Part shown: positions 2,118 to 10,774 of the stretch, piece by piece
Position numbering within the stretch: position 1 is the stretch's first letter
Layout of the letters: the number at the start of each line of letters is the position of its first letter
Source of the DNA: a virus
Lineage: Duplodnaviria > Heunggongvirae > Uroviricota > Caudoviricetes
Virus record (IMG/VR): IMGVR_UViG_2531839477_000013
Length of the DNA stretch: 10,774 nucleotides
Strand: one strand, 5' to 3'
The notes under the pieces: model-generated
Seen by the model: the letters and a program-made list of their open reading frames with translations, nothing else
Told to the model about the DNA's origin: nothing
Databases searched by the model: none
Translations under genes and position numbers: made by a program

Positions 2118-2622
2118 ACAGGCTCGTGAGGCTCTGGATGCCTGGATATGTCGACCAGGAATGACACAGGAGCAGGCGACGATATTAATCACTGAAGCAT
2201 TCTGGGCTTTGAAAGAGCGCCCGAACATCGATGTTCAGCGTGTCACAGATGAAGGTGGCGCGGTTGATCAGCGAGCGCTTGGTGTTAATCGAGTGAAGAT
2301 ATTCGAACGCTGGAAGGCTATCGACACCAGGGATAAGCGTGAAAAGTTCACGGCGCTAGTGCCTGCGATTATGGAGGCTATCCGGATTAGTGATTTCAGG
2401 TTGTATCGTGAAATTACTGACGGAAAAAGCATCACGTGCATGATCGCCGGGTTAAACAAAGAATATGGCGATGTGGTGGAGTCCGGACTGCTTTTTGCTG
2501 ATCCTGCCGTAGTGGATCGTGAAACTGACGAACTTATAGAAAAAGCAATTGCTTTCAAGCTTGCGTATCGACAGCAATACCAACAAAAAGCTGGATGGAA
2601 TTATGAGCCTTCTTTTTGCTGA
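2101..2622 (+). CDS. YdaT/YdfX-like early prophage protein (173 aa), function unknown (cII-position gene)
   Basis: 173-aa ORF. Its ATG overlaps the dicC 3' end by 17 nt, suggesting translational coupling. Family assignment is positional and from memory only. Confidence 0.7.
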   Translation: MKITPEQAREALDAWICRPGMTQEQATILITEAFWALKERPNIDVQRVTDEGGAVDQRALGVNRVKIFERWKAIDTRDKREKFTALVPAIMEAIRISDFRLYREITDGKSITCMIAGLNKEYGDVVESGLLFADPAVVDRETDELIEKAIAFKLAYRQQYQQKAGWNYEPSFC

Positions 2623-3568
2623 ACGCCCACTGGTTATAAACACGCAGCTGGCAATGAAAATTGGCTTAAACGAAGCCATTGTTTTGCAACAACTGCACTA
2701 CTGGTTGAGAGATACCAACTCCGGCATGGAATGTGATGGTGTTCGCTGGATTTATAACACAACGGAACAATGGCTGGAACAGTTCCCATTCTGGTCAGAG
2801 TCAACGTTAAAGCGCGCGTTTGCAAGTCTGAAAACGCTGGGGCTTTTGCGTTGTGAAAAGCTCAATAAATCAAAGCGCGATATGACCAATTTCTACACGA
2901 TCAACTATGGGAGCGAACTTTTAGATGGTGGCAAATTGAGCGAATCCATCGGTTCAAAATGCGCCGCTCCATCAGGTCAAAATGACACGATGGAAGAGGT
3001 CAAAATGAAACGCTCCATTGGTTCAAAACGACCCAATGTCATCGGGTCAAAATGGCCTGATGATCTTACAGAGAATACAACAGAGATTACTACAGAGAAT
3101 AAAAACACTTTTCGTCCGGAAGCTTCGCAACCGGACCCGCAGACGACTGAACAGGATTCTTTAACCCGGAACTCCGACGCGGTTGTGTTTAGTGCGAAAA
3201 AACGCCAGTGGGGTAGCAGGGAGGATTTGGCGTGTGCGCAGTGGATCTGGGGGCGGATCGTGGGTCTCTACGAACAGGCAGCCAGTGATGATGGCGAGAT
3301 CATGCGACCAAAAGAGCCTAACTGGACTGCCTGGGCCAATGACGTGCGCACAATGCGGATGCTGGATGGCAGAAGCCACAGACAAATTTGCGAAATGTTT
3401 GGTCGGGTTCAGCGAGATCCATTCTGGGTAAAAAACATCATGAGCCCGTCAAAGCTCCGCGAAAAATGGGACGAACTGGTCATCCGCCTGGGACGTTCAC
3501 CTGTACAGCGTTGTGTTAATCATATTTCTGAACCGGATACAGAAATTCCGCCTGGTTTCAGAGGATAA
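2603..3568 (+). CDS. Phage replication initiator: N-terminal winged-helix DNA-binding domain, iteron-containing linker, DnaT-like (primosomal protein I) C-terminal domain
   Basis: The ATG at 2603 (MSLLFAERPLVINTQLAMKIGLNEAIVLQQLHYWL...) is the first ATG; the track ORF starts at an upstream TTG at 2549. The C-terminus ...VNHISEPDTEIPPGFRG closely matches the E. coli DnaT C-terminus (...VSEPDSQIPPGFRG) as I recall it. Five iterons lie inside the gene, as in lambda O. Confidence 0.85.
   Translation: MSLLFAERPLVINTQLAMKIGLNEAIVLQQLHYWLRDTNSGMECDGVRWIYNTTEQWLEQFPFWSESTLKRAFASLKTLGLLRCEKLNKSKRDMTNFYTINYGSELLDGGKLSESIGSKCAAPSGQNDTMEEVKMKRSIGSKRPNVIGSKWPDDLTENTTEITTENKNTFRPEASQPDPQTTEQDSLTRNSDAVVFSAKKRQWGSREDLACAQWIWGRIVGLYEQAASDDGEIMRPKEPNWTAWANDVRTMRMLDGRSHRQICEMFGRVQRDPFWVKNIMSPSKLREKWDELVIRLGRSPVQRCVNHISEPDTEIPPGFRG
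2945..3054 (+). repeat. Replication origin iterons: five direct repeats at 23-24 bp spacing (2945, 2968, 2991, 3014, 3038), core GGT(T)CAAAA(T/C)G, followed by an A-rich tract with three ACAGAGA repeats (3068-3098)
   Basis: Repeats read directly: tccatcggttcaaaatg, tccatcaggtcaaaatg, tggaagaggtcaaaatg, tccattggttcaaaacg, gtcatcgggtcaaaatg. Their placement in the linker-coding region of the initiator gene parallels ori-lambda inside O. Confidence 0.75.
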
Positions 3569-3608
3569 GTGTTGATTTCAGGTCATGAGGTAATTTTAAG
3601 GGGGACTT

Positions 3609-4031
3609 GTGGCAAAAGTTTTTACACAAGAAGAGCGGGAAAAAATTAAATGGCAGGTGGTGGAACTCGTGCGCCAGAGCGGCCGTGAGACGTTACGGCA
3701 ACTGGAAGCTAAAACAGGTGCGACTAGATATCTGATGAGCGTTCTTGCCAGAGAGCTGGTAGCCAGTGGCGATGTATACAACTCCGGCTACGGGTTATTC
3801 CCCTCTGAACAGGCGCGTAAGGACTGGCAAAACGCCCGCAAAAAACTCTCGAGGGCAAAGGTGAAGAAACCTGCTGTGGTTGATCCGGACCTTATCTGGT
3901 CATCACCTGACGGAGAAATACGTCGCTACGACAGTCGCCTAAACATAATCTGTCGCGAGTGCCGGAAGAGCGAAGTTATGCAGCGCATACTGGCTTTCTA
4001 TCAGGGTAATTTTCAGGACGTGGCGCAGTGA
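3609..4031 (+). CDS. Hypothetical prophage protein (140 aa)
   Basis: GTG start at 3609 with a strong Shine-Dalgarno (AAGGGGGA) 5-12 nt upstream. The stop overlaps the next start (GTGA). No family recognised. Confidence 0.65.
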   Translation: MAKVFTQEEREKIKWQVVELVRQSGRETLRQLEAKTGATRYLMSVLARELVASGDVYNSGYGLFPSEQARKDWQNARKKLSRAKVKKPAVVDPDLIWSSPDGEIRRYDSRLNIICRECRKSEVMQRILAFYQGNFQDVAQ

Positions 4032-4474
4032 GTGCACCGGCAACCATTCTTGATATGTGCTGTGGCAGCCGCATGTTCTGGTTCGATAAGTCTGACAAAC
4101 GGGCGATATTCAGCGATATCAGAAAAGAAGGATACACATTACGCAATGGGAGACGCTTGATTATCAGCCCTGACATTATCGCAGATTTTCGTGCATTATC
4201 ATTTGCAGACGCATCTTTTTCGATGGTTGTATTAGACCCTCCGCATCTTGAGCGTGTTGGTGATAACGCCTGGATGGGAAAGAAATATGGACGGCTGAAT
4301 AAAGATGCCTGGCGTGATGATTTGCGACAGAGATTTAAAGAAGCTTTTCGGGTGTTGAGGTCGCACGGCGTTCTGATTTTTTAATGGAATGAAACGCAAA
4401 TACCGGTAAGCCAGATTCTGGCACTGACAGATAGAAAGCCTGTTATCTGTCAACGAACAGGGAAAAAACGATAA
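4028..4474 (+). pseudogene. SAM-dependent methyltransferase-like gene interrupted by an in-frame TAA at 4382-4384
   Basis: N-terminal motif-I-like ILDMCCGSRMF and motif-IV-like VLDPPH. After the TAA the same frame continues as WNETQIPVSQILALTDRKPVICQRTGKKR to a second TAA at 4472-4474. The track reports only 4028..4384. Confidence 0.55.
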
Positions 4475-4646
4475 AACCCACTGGATTATTTTTATGAAAG
4501 AGGCATCCAGTGAGTAGATTCGTAAGGTTACAGATACGTATATCTGAATAATTAAATTCAGTTCTGTAAATAAAACTTAATCCTTAACCGGATGGATTTC
4601 TGCACCCTCAGAACATCAGGAGGCCGCCCGAAAGGGCGGTAGTGAA

Positions 4647-4757
4647 ATGCGAAAGTTCAAAATTATTATTGAAACGGAAATAGCTGGTGGAGATTTTGAG
4701 GATGTATTCGAAGTGGACGATGACGCAACACCTGATGAAATTCATGACGGAGCATAA
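4647..4757 (+). CDS. Candidate small acidic protein (36 aa): MRKFKIIIETEIAGGDFEDVFEVDDDATPDEIHDGA
   Basis: Below the ORF-track cutoff. An AGGAGG at 4618-4623 is separated from the ATG by a GC-rich GAAA-tetraloop hairpin (4624-4639). Coding status unproven. Confidence 0.3.
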   Translation: MRKFKIIIETEIAGGDFEDVFEVDDDATPDEIHDGA

Positions 4758-4806
4758 GAAATTTTCTTTAACTACTGCAATTACTCATACCACGAAATAA
4801 AAGACG

Positions 4807-4998
4807 ATGAGGAAGAACAAAGTGGCTGATTTTTGTTCAGCTAAATATAACATCAGTTTTGAAGAGCGGGATGAACTATTAATGGACTATGGTGAATTAC
4901 GCGGTGGAAGTGCTGTTGATGTCGAATCCTAGCGTGATGACTATGAAGCGGGAAAAACTCCGGTCGAAGCATATTGTGATGAGTGGGGCGATGAATGA
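4807..4998 (+). pseudogene. Candidate small acidic protein ORF with an in-frame TAG at 4930-4932: MRKNKVADFCSAKYNISFEERDELLMDYGELRGGSAVDVES(*)RDDYEAGKTPVEAYCDEWGDE
   Basis: Frame read by hand. The terminal TGA (4996-4998) overlaps the ATG of the next ORF (ATGA). Weak Shine-Dalgarno. Confidence 0.3.
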
Positions 4999-5249
4999 GC
5001 GAGATTAATTATCAGGAAGGGCATGAAACGGCGGGGCAAGCAAAACCAGTGGCATGGCGATATCGCTACGTGAAAAAAGCGTTACGGACTTTCAGGGGAA
5101 GTAGTGGTCTGGTGACTGGAAATATGTACCGAAAAAAGAGGATTGTAACGACAGGCCGAACTATCAAATTCAGGCCTTATTCACTGCCTCACCAGTCCCG
5201 GTTACATCAGAAGAACTGGTTAAAGCTGTGCACTTTTATGAACAACTAA
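4995..5249 (+). CDS. Hypothetical ORF (84 aa), possibly a frameshifted remnant
   Basis: Track ORF. An overlapping alternative frame (5054-5281) reads like protein (WSGDWKYVPKKEDCNDRPNYQIQALFTASPVPVTSEELVKAVHFYEQLKRENPPTSGN) but is itself broken by a TAG at 5102-5104. Confidence 0.3.
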   Translation: MSEINYQEGHETAGQAKPVAWRYRYVKKALRTFRGSSGLVTGNMYRKKRIVTTGRTIKFRPYSLPHQSRLHQKNWLKLCTFMNN

Positions 5250-5535
5250 AACGCGAAAATCCACCAACATCCGGCAACTAGATTAATGGATTAACTATGT
5301 CGGTTAAACGACCAGCCAACTGAAAAAGCGGAAACCTGATTACAGGTTGCCAGATAAGGCAATGAGCTACCTGGCGCGGAACGGACTGATAAGTATGGGG
5401 AATGTTTTACGATGAACCTTTAGACTAAAGAGTTTGTAACGCTATGTAAGTGATTTTTTCTGGTTTAGATATTTATATGTCCGGCCAAATTGAGGTGTGT
5501 TTAAATGTAATTGCACATTGATTGTAGGAGGAATA

Positions 5536-5715: not shown

Positions 5716-6049
5716 ATACAGCGAACTCCATTGGTTTAGTTGGATATTTACTGTGCTGGACAAAAACGGTTTGCGGGGAAATCTTAGTTAAGTAGAATGA
5801 CTGCGGGTGCTTGAGGCTATCTGCCTCGGGCATGGACACCAACGGCAGATAGAGAAAAGCCCCAGTTAACATTACGCGTCCTGCAAGACGCTTAACATTA
5901 ATCTGAGGCCAATTTCATGCTAGACACATGTAGGTTAGCCTCTTACGTGCCGAAAGGCACGGAGAAGCAGGCTATTGTTAACACCAAGCTGTAATGTCCC
6001 CTTTGAACCATTCAAAAATGTCCCCAGACAATTCTCTGGGGGATTTTTC

Positions 6050-7390
6050 ATGATCAAAGAGACTGTTACGATGAGTCATAAGGAACTCCACCGACTTCAG
6101 ATTATTCAGGAGTCAATTAATCGACATATTACTCAGGAACAAGCTGCGGCACGCATTGGCATTTCTATTCGGCAGGTTAAACGTCTGGTGCAACGGTATA
6201 GAAATGAAGGGCCTTCTGGTCTGGTTTCCCACCGACGTGGAAAGCGTCCTAATAATTCCTTTTCTACTGAATTCAGAGCAACAGTAATTTCACTCCTCAA
6301 AGGCCGTTACGCTGATTTTGGACCTACGTTTGCGTGCGAAAAATTGCGCGAGATACACGGTTTATCTTTATCCGTTGAAACTCTCAGAAAGTGGATGATA
6401 GAAGAGGGGTTATGGCGTGAACGCCGTCGTAAAATTGCCCGTATATATCAACGCCGCATGCGACGACCATCTTATGGTGAACTGATCCAGATTGATGGCT
6501 CACCTCATGACTGGTTTGAAAATCGAGGCCCCAGATGTACACTGATCGTTTTCATTGATGATGCCACCAGTGCGTTGATGGCGTTGCGTTTTGTGCCTGC
6601 TGAAACAACCCGGGCTTACATGGAAACCCTCCGGGGTTACCTTAATGATCATGGCGTACCGCTCGCTCTCTACTCTGATAGACACAGTATATTCAGGGTA
6701 AATAACCCAGAGCGGGAAGGTGAGCTGACCCAGTTCACTCGTGCGATAAAGACACTGGGCATCGAGCCAATCCATGCCAACAGCCCGCAGGCAAAAGGGC
6801 GGGTAGAGCGCGCCAATCAGACACTACAGGACAGGCTGGTCAAAGAAATGCGGCTTCAGAATATCAGTGATATTGAAACAGCAAATGCATGGTTGCCGAC
6901 CTTTATTGAAGCCTATAACAACCGGTTCGCTACGTCGCCTCGTACTACTGATAATGCTCATCTTGATGTGCACCATTCTGAAGAGGAACTGGGTTATATC
7001 TTCAGCCTACAGGCGAAGCGCGTTCTGTCTAAAAATCTCACTTTCCAGTACAAAAGCAGTGCGTTTCAGGTACGCAGTGAGAGCCGGGGATATCGACTTA
7101 GGCATTCGGTTGTTACTGTATGCGAGAACTTTGACGGTGAAATTAACGTTCTGTATGACGGGAAAGCGCTGGGCTGGGAAAAGTATGTTGATGGCCCGGA
7201 GCCTATACCACTGGATGATGAAAAGAGTGTCCATGAACGAGTGGATAATGCCCGTATTGATTTACGCTCAAAATACTATGTTAAACCTAAAGCTGACCAT
7301 CCCTGGCTTACGCGCCGAACGCAAAGTCATCAGCAAGTTAAGCCCCCGAAGTTACCTAAAAAGAAGCCTGATCCCGATAAAAAAGATTGA
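6050..7390 (+). CDS. DDE transposase-like protein of the rve (integrase core) type, N-terminal HTH, 446 aa; IS481/ISNCY-like
   Basis: First in-frame ATG at 6050 after a GGGGGA Shine-Dalgarno (track ORF starts at TTG 5975). Catalytic-looking residues IQIDGS, LYSDRHS, GRVERANQTL. Probably the full-length counterpart of the intK fragment I recall in K-12 Qin. Element boundaries not identified. Confidence 0.82.
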   Translation: MIKETVTMSHKELHRLQIIQESINRHITQEQAAARIGISIRQVKRLVQRYRNEGPSGLVSHRRGKRPNNSFSTEFRATVISLLKGRYADFGPTFACEKLREIHGLSLSVETLRKWMIEEGLWRERRRKIARIYQRRMRRPSYGELIQIDGSPHDWFENRGPRCTLIVFIDDATSALMALRFVPAETTRAYMETLRGYLNDHGVPLALYSDRHSIFRVNNPEREGELTQFTRAIKTLGIEPIHANSPQAKGRVERANQTLQDRLVKEMRLQNISDIETANAWLPTFIEAYNNRFATSPRTTDNAHLDVHHSEEELGYIFSLQAKRVLSKNLTFQYKSSAFQVRSESRGYRLRHSVVTVCENFDGEINVLYDGKALGWEKYVDGPEPIPLDDEKSVHERVDNARIDLRSKYYVKPKADHPWLTRRTQSHQQVKPPKLPKKKPDPDKKD

Positions 7391-9289: not shown

Positions 9290-9445
9290 ATGAAGCAGCA
9301 AAAGGCGATGTTAATCGCCCTGATCGTCATCTGTTTAACCGTCATAGTGACGGCACTGGTAACGAGGAAAGACCTCTGCGAGGTACGAATCCGAACCGGC
9401 CAGACGGAGGTCGCTGTCTTCACAGCTTACGAACCTGAGGAGTAA
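9290..9445 (+). CDS. hokD: HokD (RelF) Hok-family membrane toxin, 51 aa, below the ORF-track cutoff
   Basis: Hand translation gives MKQQKAMLIALIVICLTVIVTALVTRKDLCEVRIRTGQTEVAVFTAYEPEE with TAA at 9443-9445. A typical Hok sequence, in the expected place after relE. Confidence 0.9.
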   Translation: MKQQKAMLIALIVICLTVIVTALVTRKDLCEVRIRTGQTEVAVFTAYEPEE

Positions 9446-9467: not shown

Positions 9468-10774
9468 CATAAGCGCTAACTTAAGGGTTGTGGTATTACG
9501 CCTGATATGATTTAACGTGCCGATGAATTACTCTCACGATAACTGGTCAGCAATTCTGGCCCATATTGGTAAGCCCGAAGAACTGGATACTTCGGCACGT
9601 AATGCCGGGGCTCTAACCCGCCGCCGCGAAATTCGTGATGCTGCAACTCTGCTACGTCTGGGGCTGGCTTACGGCCCCGGGGGGATGTCATTACGTGAAG
9701 TCACTGCATGGGCTCAGCTCCATGACGTTGCAACATTATCTGACGTGGCTCTCCTGAAGCGGCTGCGGAATGCCGCCGACTGGTTTGGCATACTTGCCGC
9801 ACAAACACTTGCTGTACGCGCCGCAGTTACGGGTTGTACAAGCGGAAAGAGATTGCGTCTTGTCGATGGAACAGCAATCAGTGCGCCCGGGGGCGGCAGC
9901 GCTGAATGGCGACTACATATGGGATATGATCCTCATACCTGTCAGTTCACTGATTTTGAGCTAACCGACAGCAGAGACGCTGAACGGCTGGACCGATTTG
10001 CGCAAACGGCAGACGAGATACGCATTGCTGACCGGGGATTCGGTTCGCGTCCCGAATGTATCCGCTCACTTGCTTTTGGAGAAGCTGATTATATCGTCCG
10101 GGTTCACTGGCGAGGATTGCGCTGGTTAACTGCAGAAGGAATGCGCTTTGACATGATGGGTTTTCTGCGCGGGCTGGATTGCGGTAAGAACGGTGAAACC
10201 ACTGTAATGATAGGCAATTCAGGTAATAAAAAAGCCGGAGCTCCCTTTCCGGCACGTCTCATTGCCGTATCACTTCCTCCCGAAAAAGCATTAATCAGTA
10301 AAACCCGACTGCTCAGCGAGAATCGTCGAAAAGGACGAGTAGTTCAGGCGGAAACGCTGGAAGCAGCGGGCCATGTGCTATTGCTAACATCATTACCGGA
10401 AGATGAATATTCAGCAGAGCAAGTGGCTGATTGTTACCGTCTGCGATGGCAAATTGAACTGGCTTTTAAGCGGCTCAAAAGTTTGCTGCACCTGGATGCT
10501 TTGCGTGCAAAGGAACCTGAACTCGCGAAAGCGTGGATATTTGCTAATCTACTCGCCGCATTTTTAATTGACGACATAATCCAGCCATCGCTGGATTTCC
10601 CCCCCAGAAGTGCCGGATCCGAAAAGAAGAACTAACTCGTTGTGGAGAATAACAAAAATGGTCATCTGGAGCTTACAGGTGGCCATTCGTGGGACAGTAT
10701 CCCTGACAGCCTACAAAACGCAATTGAAGAACGCGAGGCATCGTCTTAACGAGGCACCGAGGCGTCGCATTCTT
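9468..10774 (+). mobile_element. IS186 (IS4 family), left end at 9468; right end lies about 30 bp beyond the window
   Basis: The sequence from CATAAGCGCTAACTTAAGGGTTG (9468-) matches the IS186 left terminus as I recall it. The window ends inside the element just before the expected right inverted repeat. Inserted 22 bp after the hokD stop in a GC-rich site (GGCGGGGGAGAATCC). Confidence 0.88.
9523..10635 (+). CDS. insL: IS186 transposase (IS4 family, DDE), 370 aa
   Basis: ATG at 9523 (track ORF starts at GTG 9517). Product MNYSHDNWSAILAHIGKPEELD... with the IS4-family Y-x2-R-x3-E-x6-K motif (YRLRWQIELAFKRLK). Confidence 0.9.
   Translation: MNYSHDNWSAILAHIGKPEELDTSARNAGALTRRREIRDAATLLRLGLAYGPGGMSLREVTAWAQLHDVATLSDVALLKRLRNAADWFGILAAQTLAVRAAVTGCTSGKRLRLVDGTAISAPGGGSAEWRLHMGYDPHTCQFTDFELTDSRDAERLDRFAQTADEIRIADRGFGSRPECIRSLAFGEADYIVRVHWRGLRWLTAEGMRFDMMGFLRGLDCGKNGETTVMIGNSGNKKAGAPFPARLIAVSLPPEKALISKTRLLSENRRKGRVVQAETLEAAGHVLLLTSLPEDEYSAEQVADCYRLRWQIELAFKRLKSLLHLDALRAKEPELAKAWIFANLLAAFLIDDIIQPSLDFPPRSAGSEKKN

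Follow-up and report, generated by a model that had tools for sequence, protein, structure and literature searches.

Small methyltransferase genes assigned to phrog_954 are widespread in enterobacterial prophages, where they are labelled 'DNA methyltransferase', a PHROG name that is annotation only. Three intact representatives are related to the locus reported here: P0001 (162 aa), an intact 157-aa CDS from a prophage of E. coli O121:H19 (WP_001275735.1), and an uninterrupted 175-codon ORF from the Stx2c-converting phage EH0430, which ends …HGVLIFKWNETQIPVRQILALTDRKPVIGQRTGKGDKTHWIIFMKEAASEQD. In related prophages this methyltransferase usually has a DUF977 gene on its left, as it does in O121:H19, whereas the EH0430 copy is located between ead/Ea22-like genes. 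The biochemistry of the intact family remains a modest question in its own right.

The locus belongs to a stretch of viral DNA of 10,774 nucleotides (IMG/VR record IMGVR_UViG_2531839477_000013), hereafter the window. Its best match over the whole length was found in E. coli isolate 12 (99.5% identity), and the RefSeq annotation of this match corresponds to a Qin-type cryptic prophage. Gene order was dicB, ydfC, ydfB-like, ydfA, dicA-like repressor, dicC, YdaT-family, replication protein O, DUF977 and the methyltransferase pseudogene, followed by DUF7167, another frameshifted pseudogene, a partial ISEsa1-family transposase, ydfW, flxA, ydfV, relBE, hokD and IS421. The antisense sRNA DicF (RF00039, 76.7 bits) was located at 305-356 on the minus strand, between dicB and ydfC, which confirmed that the window has a Qin/dicB operon at its left end. 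Like its O121:H19 counterpart, the window copy has DUF977 on its left; unlike the EH0430 copy, it lies after replication genes.

With a probability of about 0.95, the segment 4028-4517 is a non-functional remnant of a phage class I SAM-dependent methyltransferase of ~160 aa, located in the early region of a Qin-type cryptic lambdoid prophage. An AAA to TAA nonsense change at an invariant residue, Lys119, is one inherited lesion, and a G insertion 78 bases downstream of the ochre codon is the other. Translation from GTG 4028, if any, would end after 118 residues, leaving a product devoid of the C-terminal strands of the Rossmann-type sheet and not expected to fold into an active enzyme. Both lesions are older than the split of at least two haplotypes and have been inherited vertically together with the prophage, which accounts for their presence in ~9% of sequenced E. 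coli; the gene is presumably decaying neutrally beside other pseudogenes and IS insertions of the same prophage.

The inactivated locus is already recorded in public annotation as a frameshifted pseudogene and is a case of ordinary prophage gene decay. In E. coli S1-IND-01-A, the PGAP pseudogene V6S40_RS02705 is 100% identical to the window over 4028-4519, carries the same two lesions and follows DUF977; in E. coli isolate 12, compared over the whole window, AC8BW6_RS23540 has the same two lesions at the same Qin position. The PGAP feature, described as 'SAM-dependent methyltransferase; frameshifted; internal stop', corresponds to window positions 4073-4517 and starts at an internal ATG (4073), whereas the ORF of the window starts at GTG 4028. 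Another form of the same stub with the same TAA, WP_001310834.1 (118 aa), occurs in E. coli W, in VE-V11-M and in phage PhiR42_1 (XSB42581.1). These copies are 98.6% identical to the window at the DNA level, with 7 base differences and 4 amino-acid changes, and share its G insertion except in VE-V11-M. They are annotated as an ordinary 'class I SAM-dependent methyltransferase' CDS, whereas the window-identical sequence is annotated as a pseudogene; the 118-aa stub is likewise an ordinary CDS in the RefSeq genomes of E. coli W, strain 33-6 and VE-V11-M. The biological weight of this routine gene decay in a cryptic prophage is small. Some caution with annotation is nevertheless in order, since RefSeq treats the same sequence as a pseudogene in certain genomes and as a regular protein, WP_001310834.1, in others, and counts of E. 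coli methyltransferases or methylome predictions should leave this locus out as an active enzyme. Literature searches on this gene, on DUF977 in combination with a methyltransferase, and on WP_001310834 returned nothing relevant.

Reading frames of the disrupted locus

The features of the locus and its upstream neighbour, all on the plus strand, are listed below.

3609..4031, plus strand: DUF977 (LygF/Ren-like) gene, intact, upstream neighbour
4028..4517, plus strand: whole methyltransferase pseudogene, 162 aa if both lesions are repaired
4028..4384, plus strand: 5' stub ORF of 118 codons with a GTG start, containing the motif I-like DMCCGS and the motif IV-like DPPH
4382..4384, plus strand: premature ochre codon TAA, next base T; ancestral AAA, Lys119
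4385..4459, plus strand: continuation of the original frame past the ochre codon, WNETQIPVSQILALTDRKPVICQRT, homologous to the conserved core of intact relatives
4460..4462, plus strand: GGG run with a 1-base G insertion (ancestral GG), causing a +1 frameshift
4472..4474, plus strand: second TAA, an out-of-frame stop made by the frameshift, the natural end being elsewhere
4461..4517, plus strand: original C-terminus GKNDKTHWIIFMKEASSE, shifted to the +1 frame; its native stop is the TAG at 4515-4517

A sequence-only reading of this DNA had described the ORF at 4028-4384, two methyltransferase-like motifs, the TAA at 4382-4384 and 29 further codons in the same frame, all of which were found again at these positions. 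The motifs of the 118-codon stub read ILDMCCGSRMF (motif I-like) and VLDPPH (motif IV-like) in their immediate context. Its GTG start overlaps the stop codon of DUF977 (GTGA), and a plausible Shine-Dalgarno sequence, AGGA, lies ~10 nt upstream. Past the ochre codon the frame stays open for exactly 29 codons, WNETQIPVSQILALTDRKPVICQRTGKKR, until the TAA at 4472-4474. At the base composition of the window, a frame would stay open by chance for 29 codons past a stop with a probability of ~0.19. As such runs are common by chance, the case for a broken gene rests on homology.

Base-level alignment with the intact copies placed ACA-GGAAAAAACGAT opposite ACAGGGAAAAAACGAT of the window. The additional G at 4460-4462 shifts the frame by +1, and the second TAA at 4472-4474 is thus an out-of-frame stop and not the natural end of the gene. 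Frame-2 translation made the family C-terminus, GKNDKTHWIIFMKEASSE, readable up to the TAG at 4515-4517. Owing to this frameshift, reversion of the TAA alone would leave the protein unrestored. A scan of positions 3500-5000 for promoters and terminators gave counts near chance; a weak terminator-like hairpin was present at 4350-4373 (3 GC pairs, 8-nt loop), followed by a T-run and then by the TAA.

Family membership and predicted fold

When the region was compared with phage records by megablast, Escherichia phage PhiR42_1 was seen to carry a near-identical copy, and the copy of Stx2c-converting phages was 87% identical. The O121:H19, EH0430 and P0001 copies share DMCCGS and DPPH with the window copy (86-90% DNA and 88% protein identity). 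They differ from it in having AAA at the ochre position and no extra G, and in keeping C39, P58, F69 and G102. With both lesions repaired, the window protein was 88% identical to P0001 over 100% of its length and matched phrog_954 with an E value of 2e-81 (aa 5-161, profile positions 52-205 of 229). Within the window lineage, no closely related intact copy was found, the best intact protein being this 88%-identical one. Homologues of the repaired protein numbered 7,015. The best 120 of these 7,015 covered 81-100% of its length, or 94-100% when the truncated P0024 and P0019 are set aside, and the intact enterobacterial members among the same best 120 had 157-170 aa, with some of ~248 aa. In an exhaustive representative search with P0001, full-length matches reached query residue ~157-160 (best 150 of 2,030 matches). 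Overall, intact homologues had 157-175 aa and read through the ochre position.

Lys119 was invariant in an alignment of 48 members as well as in one of 69 members, where it was one of only 12 invariant positions among 69 sequences extending down to 40% identity. The proposal that a one-base change had produced an in-frame ochre codon in a methyltransferase-family gene was thereby borne out, since the two nearest intact DNA homologues have AAA at 4382, as the suggested alignment with homologues showed. Intact homologues neither end at the equivalent of 4384 nor lack a counterpart of the downstream codons; they continue for ~40 residues. In the 48-member alignment, 15 further invariant positions lay downstream of Lys119, with the invariant W120, E122, T123, Q124, L133, T134, P138, Q142 and R143 falling within 4385..4459. 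Where the sequence-only reading had assumed a single lesion, the insertion at 4460-4462 breaks the gene too, and a protein repaired at the ochre codon only would still be without the last conserved beta-strand.

The signatures of phrog_954 were present in the stub, with D-x-C-C-G-S at aa 9-14 and D-P-P-H at aa 70-73; D9, D70, P71, P72 and H73 were invariant in the phrog_954-type family (69-member alignment). A functional member of this family would be open over ~157-175 aa up to a C-terminal strand of the form THW..F.K, whereas the window copy has a TAA at codon 119 and the +1 G. Judged from its sequence, the segment 4028-4517 is a small prophage methyltransferase of phrog_954 by descent only and should be regarded as a non-functional member.

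Searches in Pfam and NCBIfam yielded solely sub-threshold, generic methyltransferase matches for the window copy. The repaired protein scored 14.8 bits against PF01555 (N6_N4_Mtase), below the gathering threshold of 26.7, and this family matched only 10 of the 69 relatives, weakly (best E value 0.0012). PF08241 (Methyltransf_11) gave 18.7-20.1 bits for the window copy against a cut-off of 21.2 and matched 58 of the 69 relatives. Sequence and profile searches of the PDB gave marginal matches, with no solved structure close by sequence, and a first structure model was poor (pLDDT 64.9), its fold matches being weak. For the closest intact relative, an AlphaFold model based on a diverse alignment reached a confident pLDDT of 94.2 and a pTM of 0.89. 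It displayed strands at 7-9, 26-30, 34-37, 43-46 and 64-69 and helices at 82-87 and 95-109, followed in the C-terminal half by a long strand (110-121), a helix (127-131) and strands at 138-144 and 150-156. On the basis of this model, the class I SAM-methyltransferase fold of the intact family can be considered established. The last beta-strand of the model (150-156) is the counterpart of the C-terminus GKNDKTHWIIFMKEASSE, which matches the C-termini of P0001, P0002 and the O121 protein.

The proteins with a similar fold, PH0226 (1ve3), Trm11 (6zxv), TrmN (3tma), RsmC (3dmf) and M.TaqI (1aqi), are only 14-24% identical to the family; they are larger and have extra substrate-binding domains, whereas the model of the ~160-aa protein showed no separate recognition domain. 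These matches span RNA, DNA and small-molecule methyltransferases, none of them specific enough for substrate assignment. The motif (D/N/S)PP(Y/F/W/H) is typical of amino-methyltransferases, and the DPPH motif together with the PHROG label suggests that the ancestral enzyme probably acted on the exocyclic amino group of a nucleobase. As for the 118-residue product, it would be deprived of the end of the central strand, one helix and both C-terminal strands of the model; we infer that the seven-stranded sheet cannot form and that the product is inactive.

Two short PHROGs of 117 positions, both also labelled 'DNA methyltransferase', matched only parts of the repaired protein: phrog_11564 at aa 5-93 and phrog_6151 at aa 58-158. 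With matches confined to the N-terminal part for the former and to the C-terminal part for the latter, they have apparently been assembled from split or truncated phrog_954 genes.

Age of the lesions and decay of the gene

The distribution of the lesions was analysed by allele-specific exact-match searches among 5,426 complete E. coli genomes. A 70-mer containing the TAA was present in 472 genomes, always as one chromosomal copy, while the corresponding 70-mers with AAA or GAA were found in 0 genomes each. An 81-mer with GGG at the insertion site was present in 463 genomes, and the 80-mer with GG in 1, VE-V11-M, where the TAA was still present. The metagenome contig ERZ28647137 scaffold_4000 (398-799) had GAA in place of TAA and kept the frameshift, an allele seen once. 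Both alleles are otherwise those of the common E. coli W-type haplotype, which has both lesions, and are most simply explained as secondary changes or errors; neither of them restores the ORF. Between the window-type and W-type haplotypes there are 7 differences (4 non-synonymous, 3 synonymous), while both lesions are common to the two, and an ECOR13 phage record shows the same bases at the lesions. Being common to hundreds of genomes and to two haplotypes, the lesions are inherited and old relative to strain divergence. They are neither recent nor a sequencing artefact.

This distribution bears directly on the idea that the gene is really intact in the organism and appears broken through sequencing or assembly error. 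Homopolymers adjoin both lesions (T6 before the TAA; GGG, then A6), and some platforms miscall lengths in such runs. However, the ochre codon is a substitution and not a length error, identical bases recur in hundreds of independent assemblies from many laboratories and platforms (472 complete genomes for the TAA 70-mer, 463 for the GGG 81-mer), no intact version of the lineage is found, and the ECOR13 record agrees, so that an error of this kind has a practically negligible probability. An equally negligible place has to be given to conditional or programmed expression, by which ochre suppression or read-through would be combined with ribosomal frameshifting, or by which phase variation would operate at the G/A run. 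The GGGAAAAAA tract is slippery-looking and the site is mutable, with GG in one genome and another frameshift in P0019. Nevertheless, all intact homologues have Lys at 119 and no extra G, so that the conserved recoding signal by which a recoded gene would be recognised is missing, and two independent low-efficiency events would be required. The possible suppression raised in the sequence-only reading is likewise poorly compatible with the local context: TAA followed by T is an efficient terminator in E. coli, no tRNA gene was found in the window, and read-through would run into the frameshift. The +1 frame needed is not favoured by the A-run in its present phase, the single GG allele keeps the TAA, so that slippage alone never restores the ORF, and invariant residues have been lost in addition.

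Signs of decay were indeed not confined to the two lesions. The repaired window protein departs from the 48 intact relatives at four of their invariant positions (C39R, P58S, F69L and G102R), besides K119, which became a stop, and three nearly invariant positions are replaced as well; all these replacements fall within the 118-aa stub. In a leave-one-out control, intact members had a median of 0 and a maximum of 3. The earlier suggestion of a recent inactivation is difficult to reconcile with these replacements and with an allele present in 472 of 5,426 genomes, without AAA or GAA versions and with two haplotypes having both lesions. Divergence between the haplotypes reached 1.40% in the stub, 1.50% in the dead tail and 1.5-1.8% in the next non-coding or pseudogene stretch, against 0.2% in the intact upstream genes (0.29% for the O-like gene, 0.00% for DUF977). 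The stub differed from the upstream genes (Fisher P = 0.009) and not from the tail and downstream stretch (P = 1.0). Non-synonymous changes accounted for 4/5 of the haplotype differences in the stub, and the allele of strain 33-6 carries C12Y in motif I, the SAM-binding loop. Since the haplotype differences are clustered at 4097-4736, a recombination tract could be an alternative to relaxed selection. Two lesions, lost invariant residues, a stub as divergent as the tail and decaying neighbours are what would characterise a pseudogene in a cryptic prophage, and all were found at this locus.

The same data can be weighed against a retention of the 118-aa fragment as a functional protein in its own right, for instance in SAM binding, in regulation or as a dominant-negative form. 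The ORF is open in all sampled alleles, across hundreds of genomes; several RefSeq genomes list it as a CDS, and it forms its own protein cluster, P0123; its plausible Shine-Dalgarno sequence and the GTGA overlap point to translational coupling to DUF977, and the coupled stub ORF may still produce the fragment. A function of this fragment is nonetheless very improbable, if slightly less so than error or recoding. Two beta-strands of the sheet and 16 invariant positions are missing from it, four invariant residues inside it are replaced, non-synonymous changes outnumber synonymous ones by 4:1, and it has diverged as much as the dead tail and ~7 times as much as the intact genes nearby. The persistence of the open frame can be explained by the low divergence of the whole prophage segment (99.5-99.8% identity). 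Neutral decay of a non-functional methyltransferase remnant would account for these observations more readily.

Independent inactivations and other remnants of the prophage

Beyond the existing annotation, the present analysis adds the minor observations that the family was inactivated independently elsewhere and that RefSeq and PHROGs treat some of its fragments as genuine proteins or families. A copy of the same family in O157:H7 prophages (A4C51_RS32140, BFL22_RS32650) is a PGAP pseudogene with the description 'internal stop'. Its stop is at Trp95 (…NKDT-stop-RDD…), without frameshift and next to yfdR, as opposed to the Lys119 stop of the window copy. Copies of this O157:H7 type with the Trp95 stop were located at 1201-1674 in str. 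4276 and at 574-1047 in strain 272, and their sequence indicates an inactivation event independent of that of the window copy. P0019, from another lineage, ends …QRTGKTIKPTGLFL, with a different frameshift at the same G/A run. The run at 4460-4468 (GGGAAAAAA) thus looks like a recurrent indel site, at which the window lineage acquired a G, VE-V11-M lost it or never had it, and P0019 differs. In Escherichia phage HannyBb (1510-1812), an apparently active phage, only the N-terminal ~55 residues are left (MCCGSRM… to …DFRALP), fused to unrelated sequence. This fragment is annotated as a 'DNA methyltransferase' of 69 aa, the next ORF is unrelated (259 aa), and the junction can be read as a recombination breakpoint inside the methyltransferase gene.

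With the K119 stop plus G insertion, the W95 stop, the P0019 frameshift and the HannyBb truncation, the family was broken independently at least 3 or 4 times in E. coli prophages. It is conceivable, although unlikely, that such repeated breakage reflects selection against an active enzyme in resident prophages rather than mere neutral decay. In this case, the intact ~160-aa protein would be a minimal amino-methyltransferase acting on nucleobases, equipped with DPPH but devoid of a recognition domain, whose activity is costly to the host, and the G/A run would act as a recurrent mutational off-switch of the enzyme.

Several other observations were made along the same prophage. PGAP treats the small DUF7167 ORF at 4647-4757 as a pseudogene ('internal stop') in E. 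coli W and VE-V11-M, and does the same for the stretch at ~4972-5392 ('hypothetical protein; frameshifted; internal stop') in every relative examined. A full-length Rfam match to the sok antitoxin (CssrC; RF01794, 104 bits) was located at 5805-5976 on the plus strand, far from hokD at 9290-9445. The match runs right up to where the ISEsa1-like transposase ORF (5975-7390) starts, and a Mok-like reading frame that opens with ATGCTAGACACATGT… at ~5918 continues into the IS. By its sequence, the segment 5805-5976 looks like a second hok/sok-type locus truncated by IS insertion. The transposase ORF at 5975-7390 is of the ISEsa1 type (IS1202-like/ISNCY); it comprises 471 codons in the window and is annotated as partial in relatives.

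It is worth noting that the right end of the window seems to be shortened. The IS421 (IS4-like) transposase (9517-10635) comes right after hokD, and the closest genome has rem between hokD and IS421; the match in this genome spans 11,229 bases, in two pieces, against 10,774 for the window, which seems to be without ~0.45 kb at this place. In the same E. coli isolate 12, replication protein O (4102-5045, corresponding to window 2549-3568) is split into two CDSs with a 23-base offset, one of 300 bp ('hypothetical protein') and one of 633 bp ('phage replication protein O'), where the window has one ORF of 339 codons. A different gene of the same prophage is thus decaying in this sister strain.
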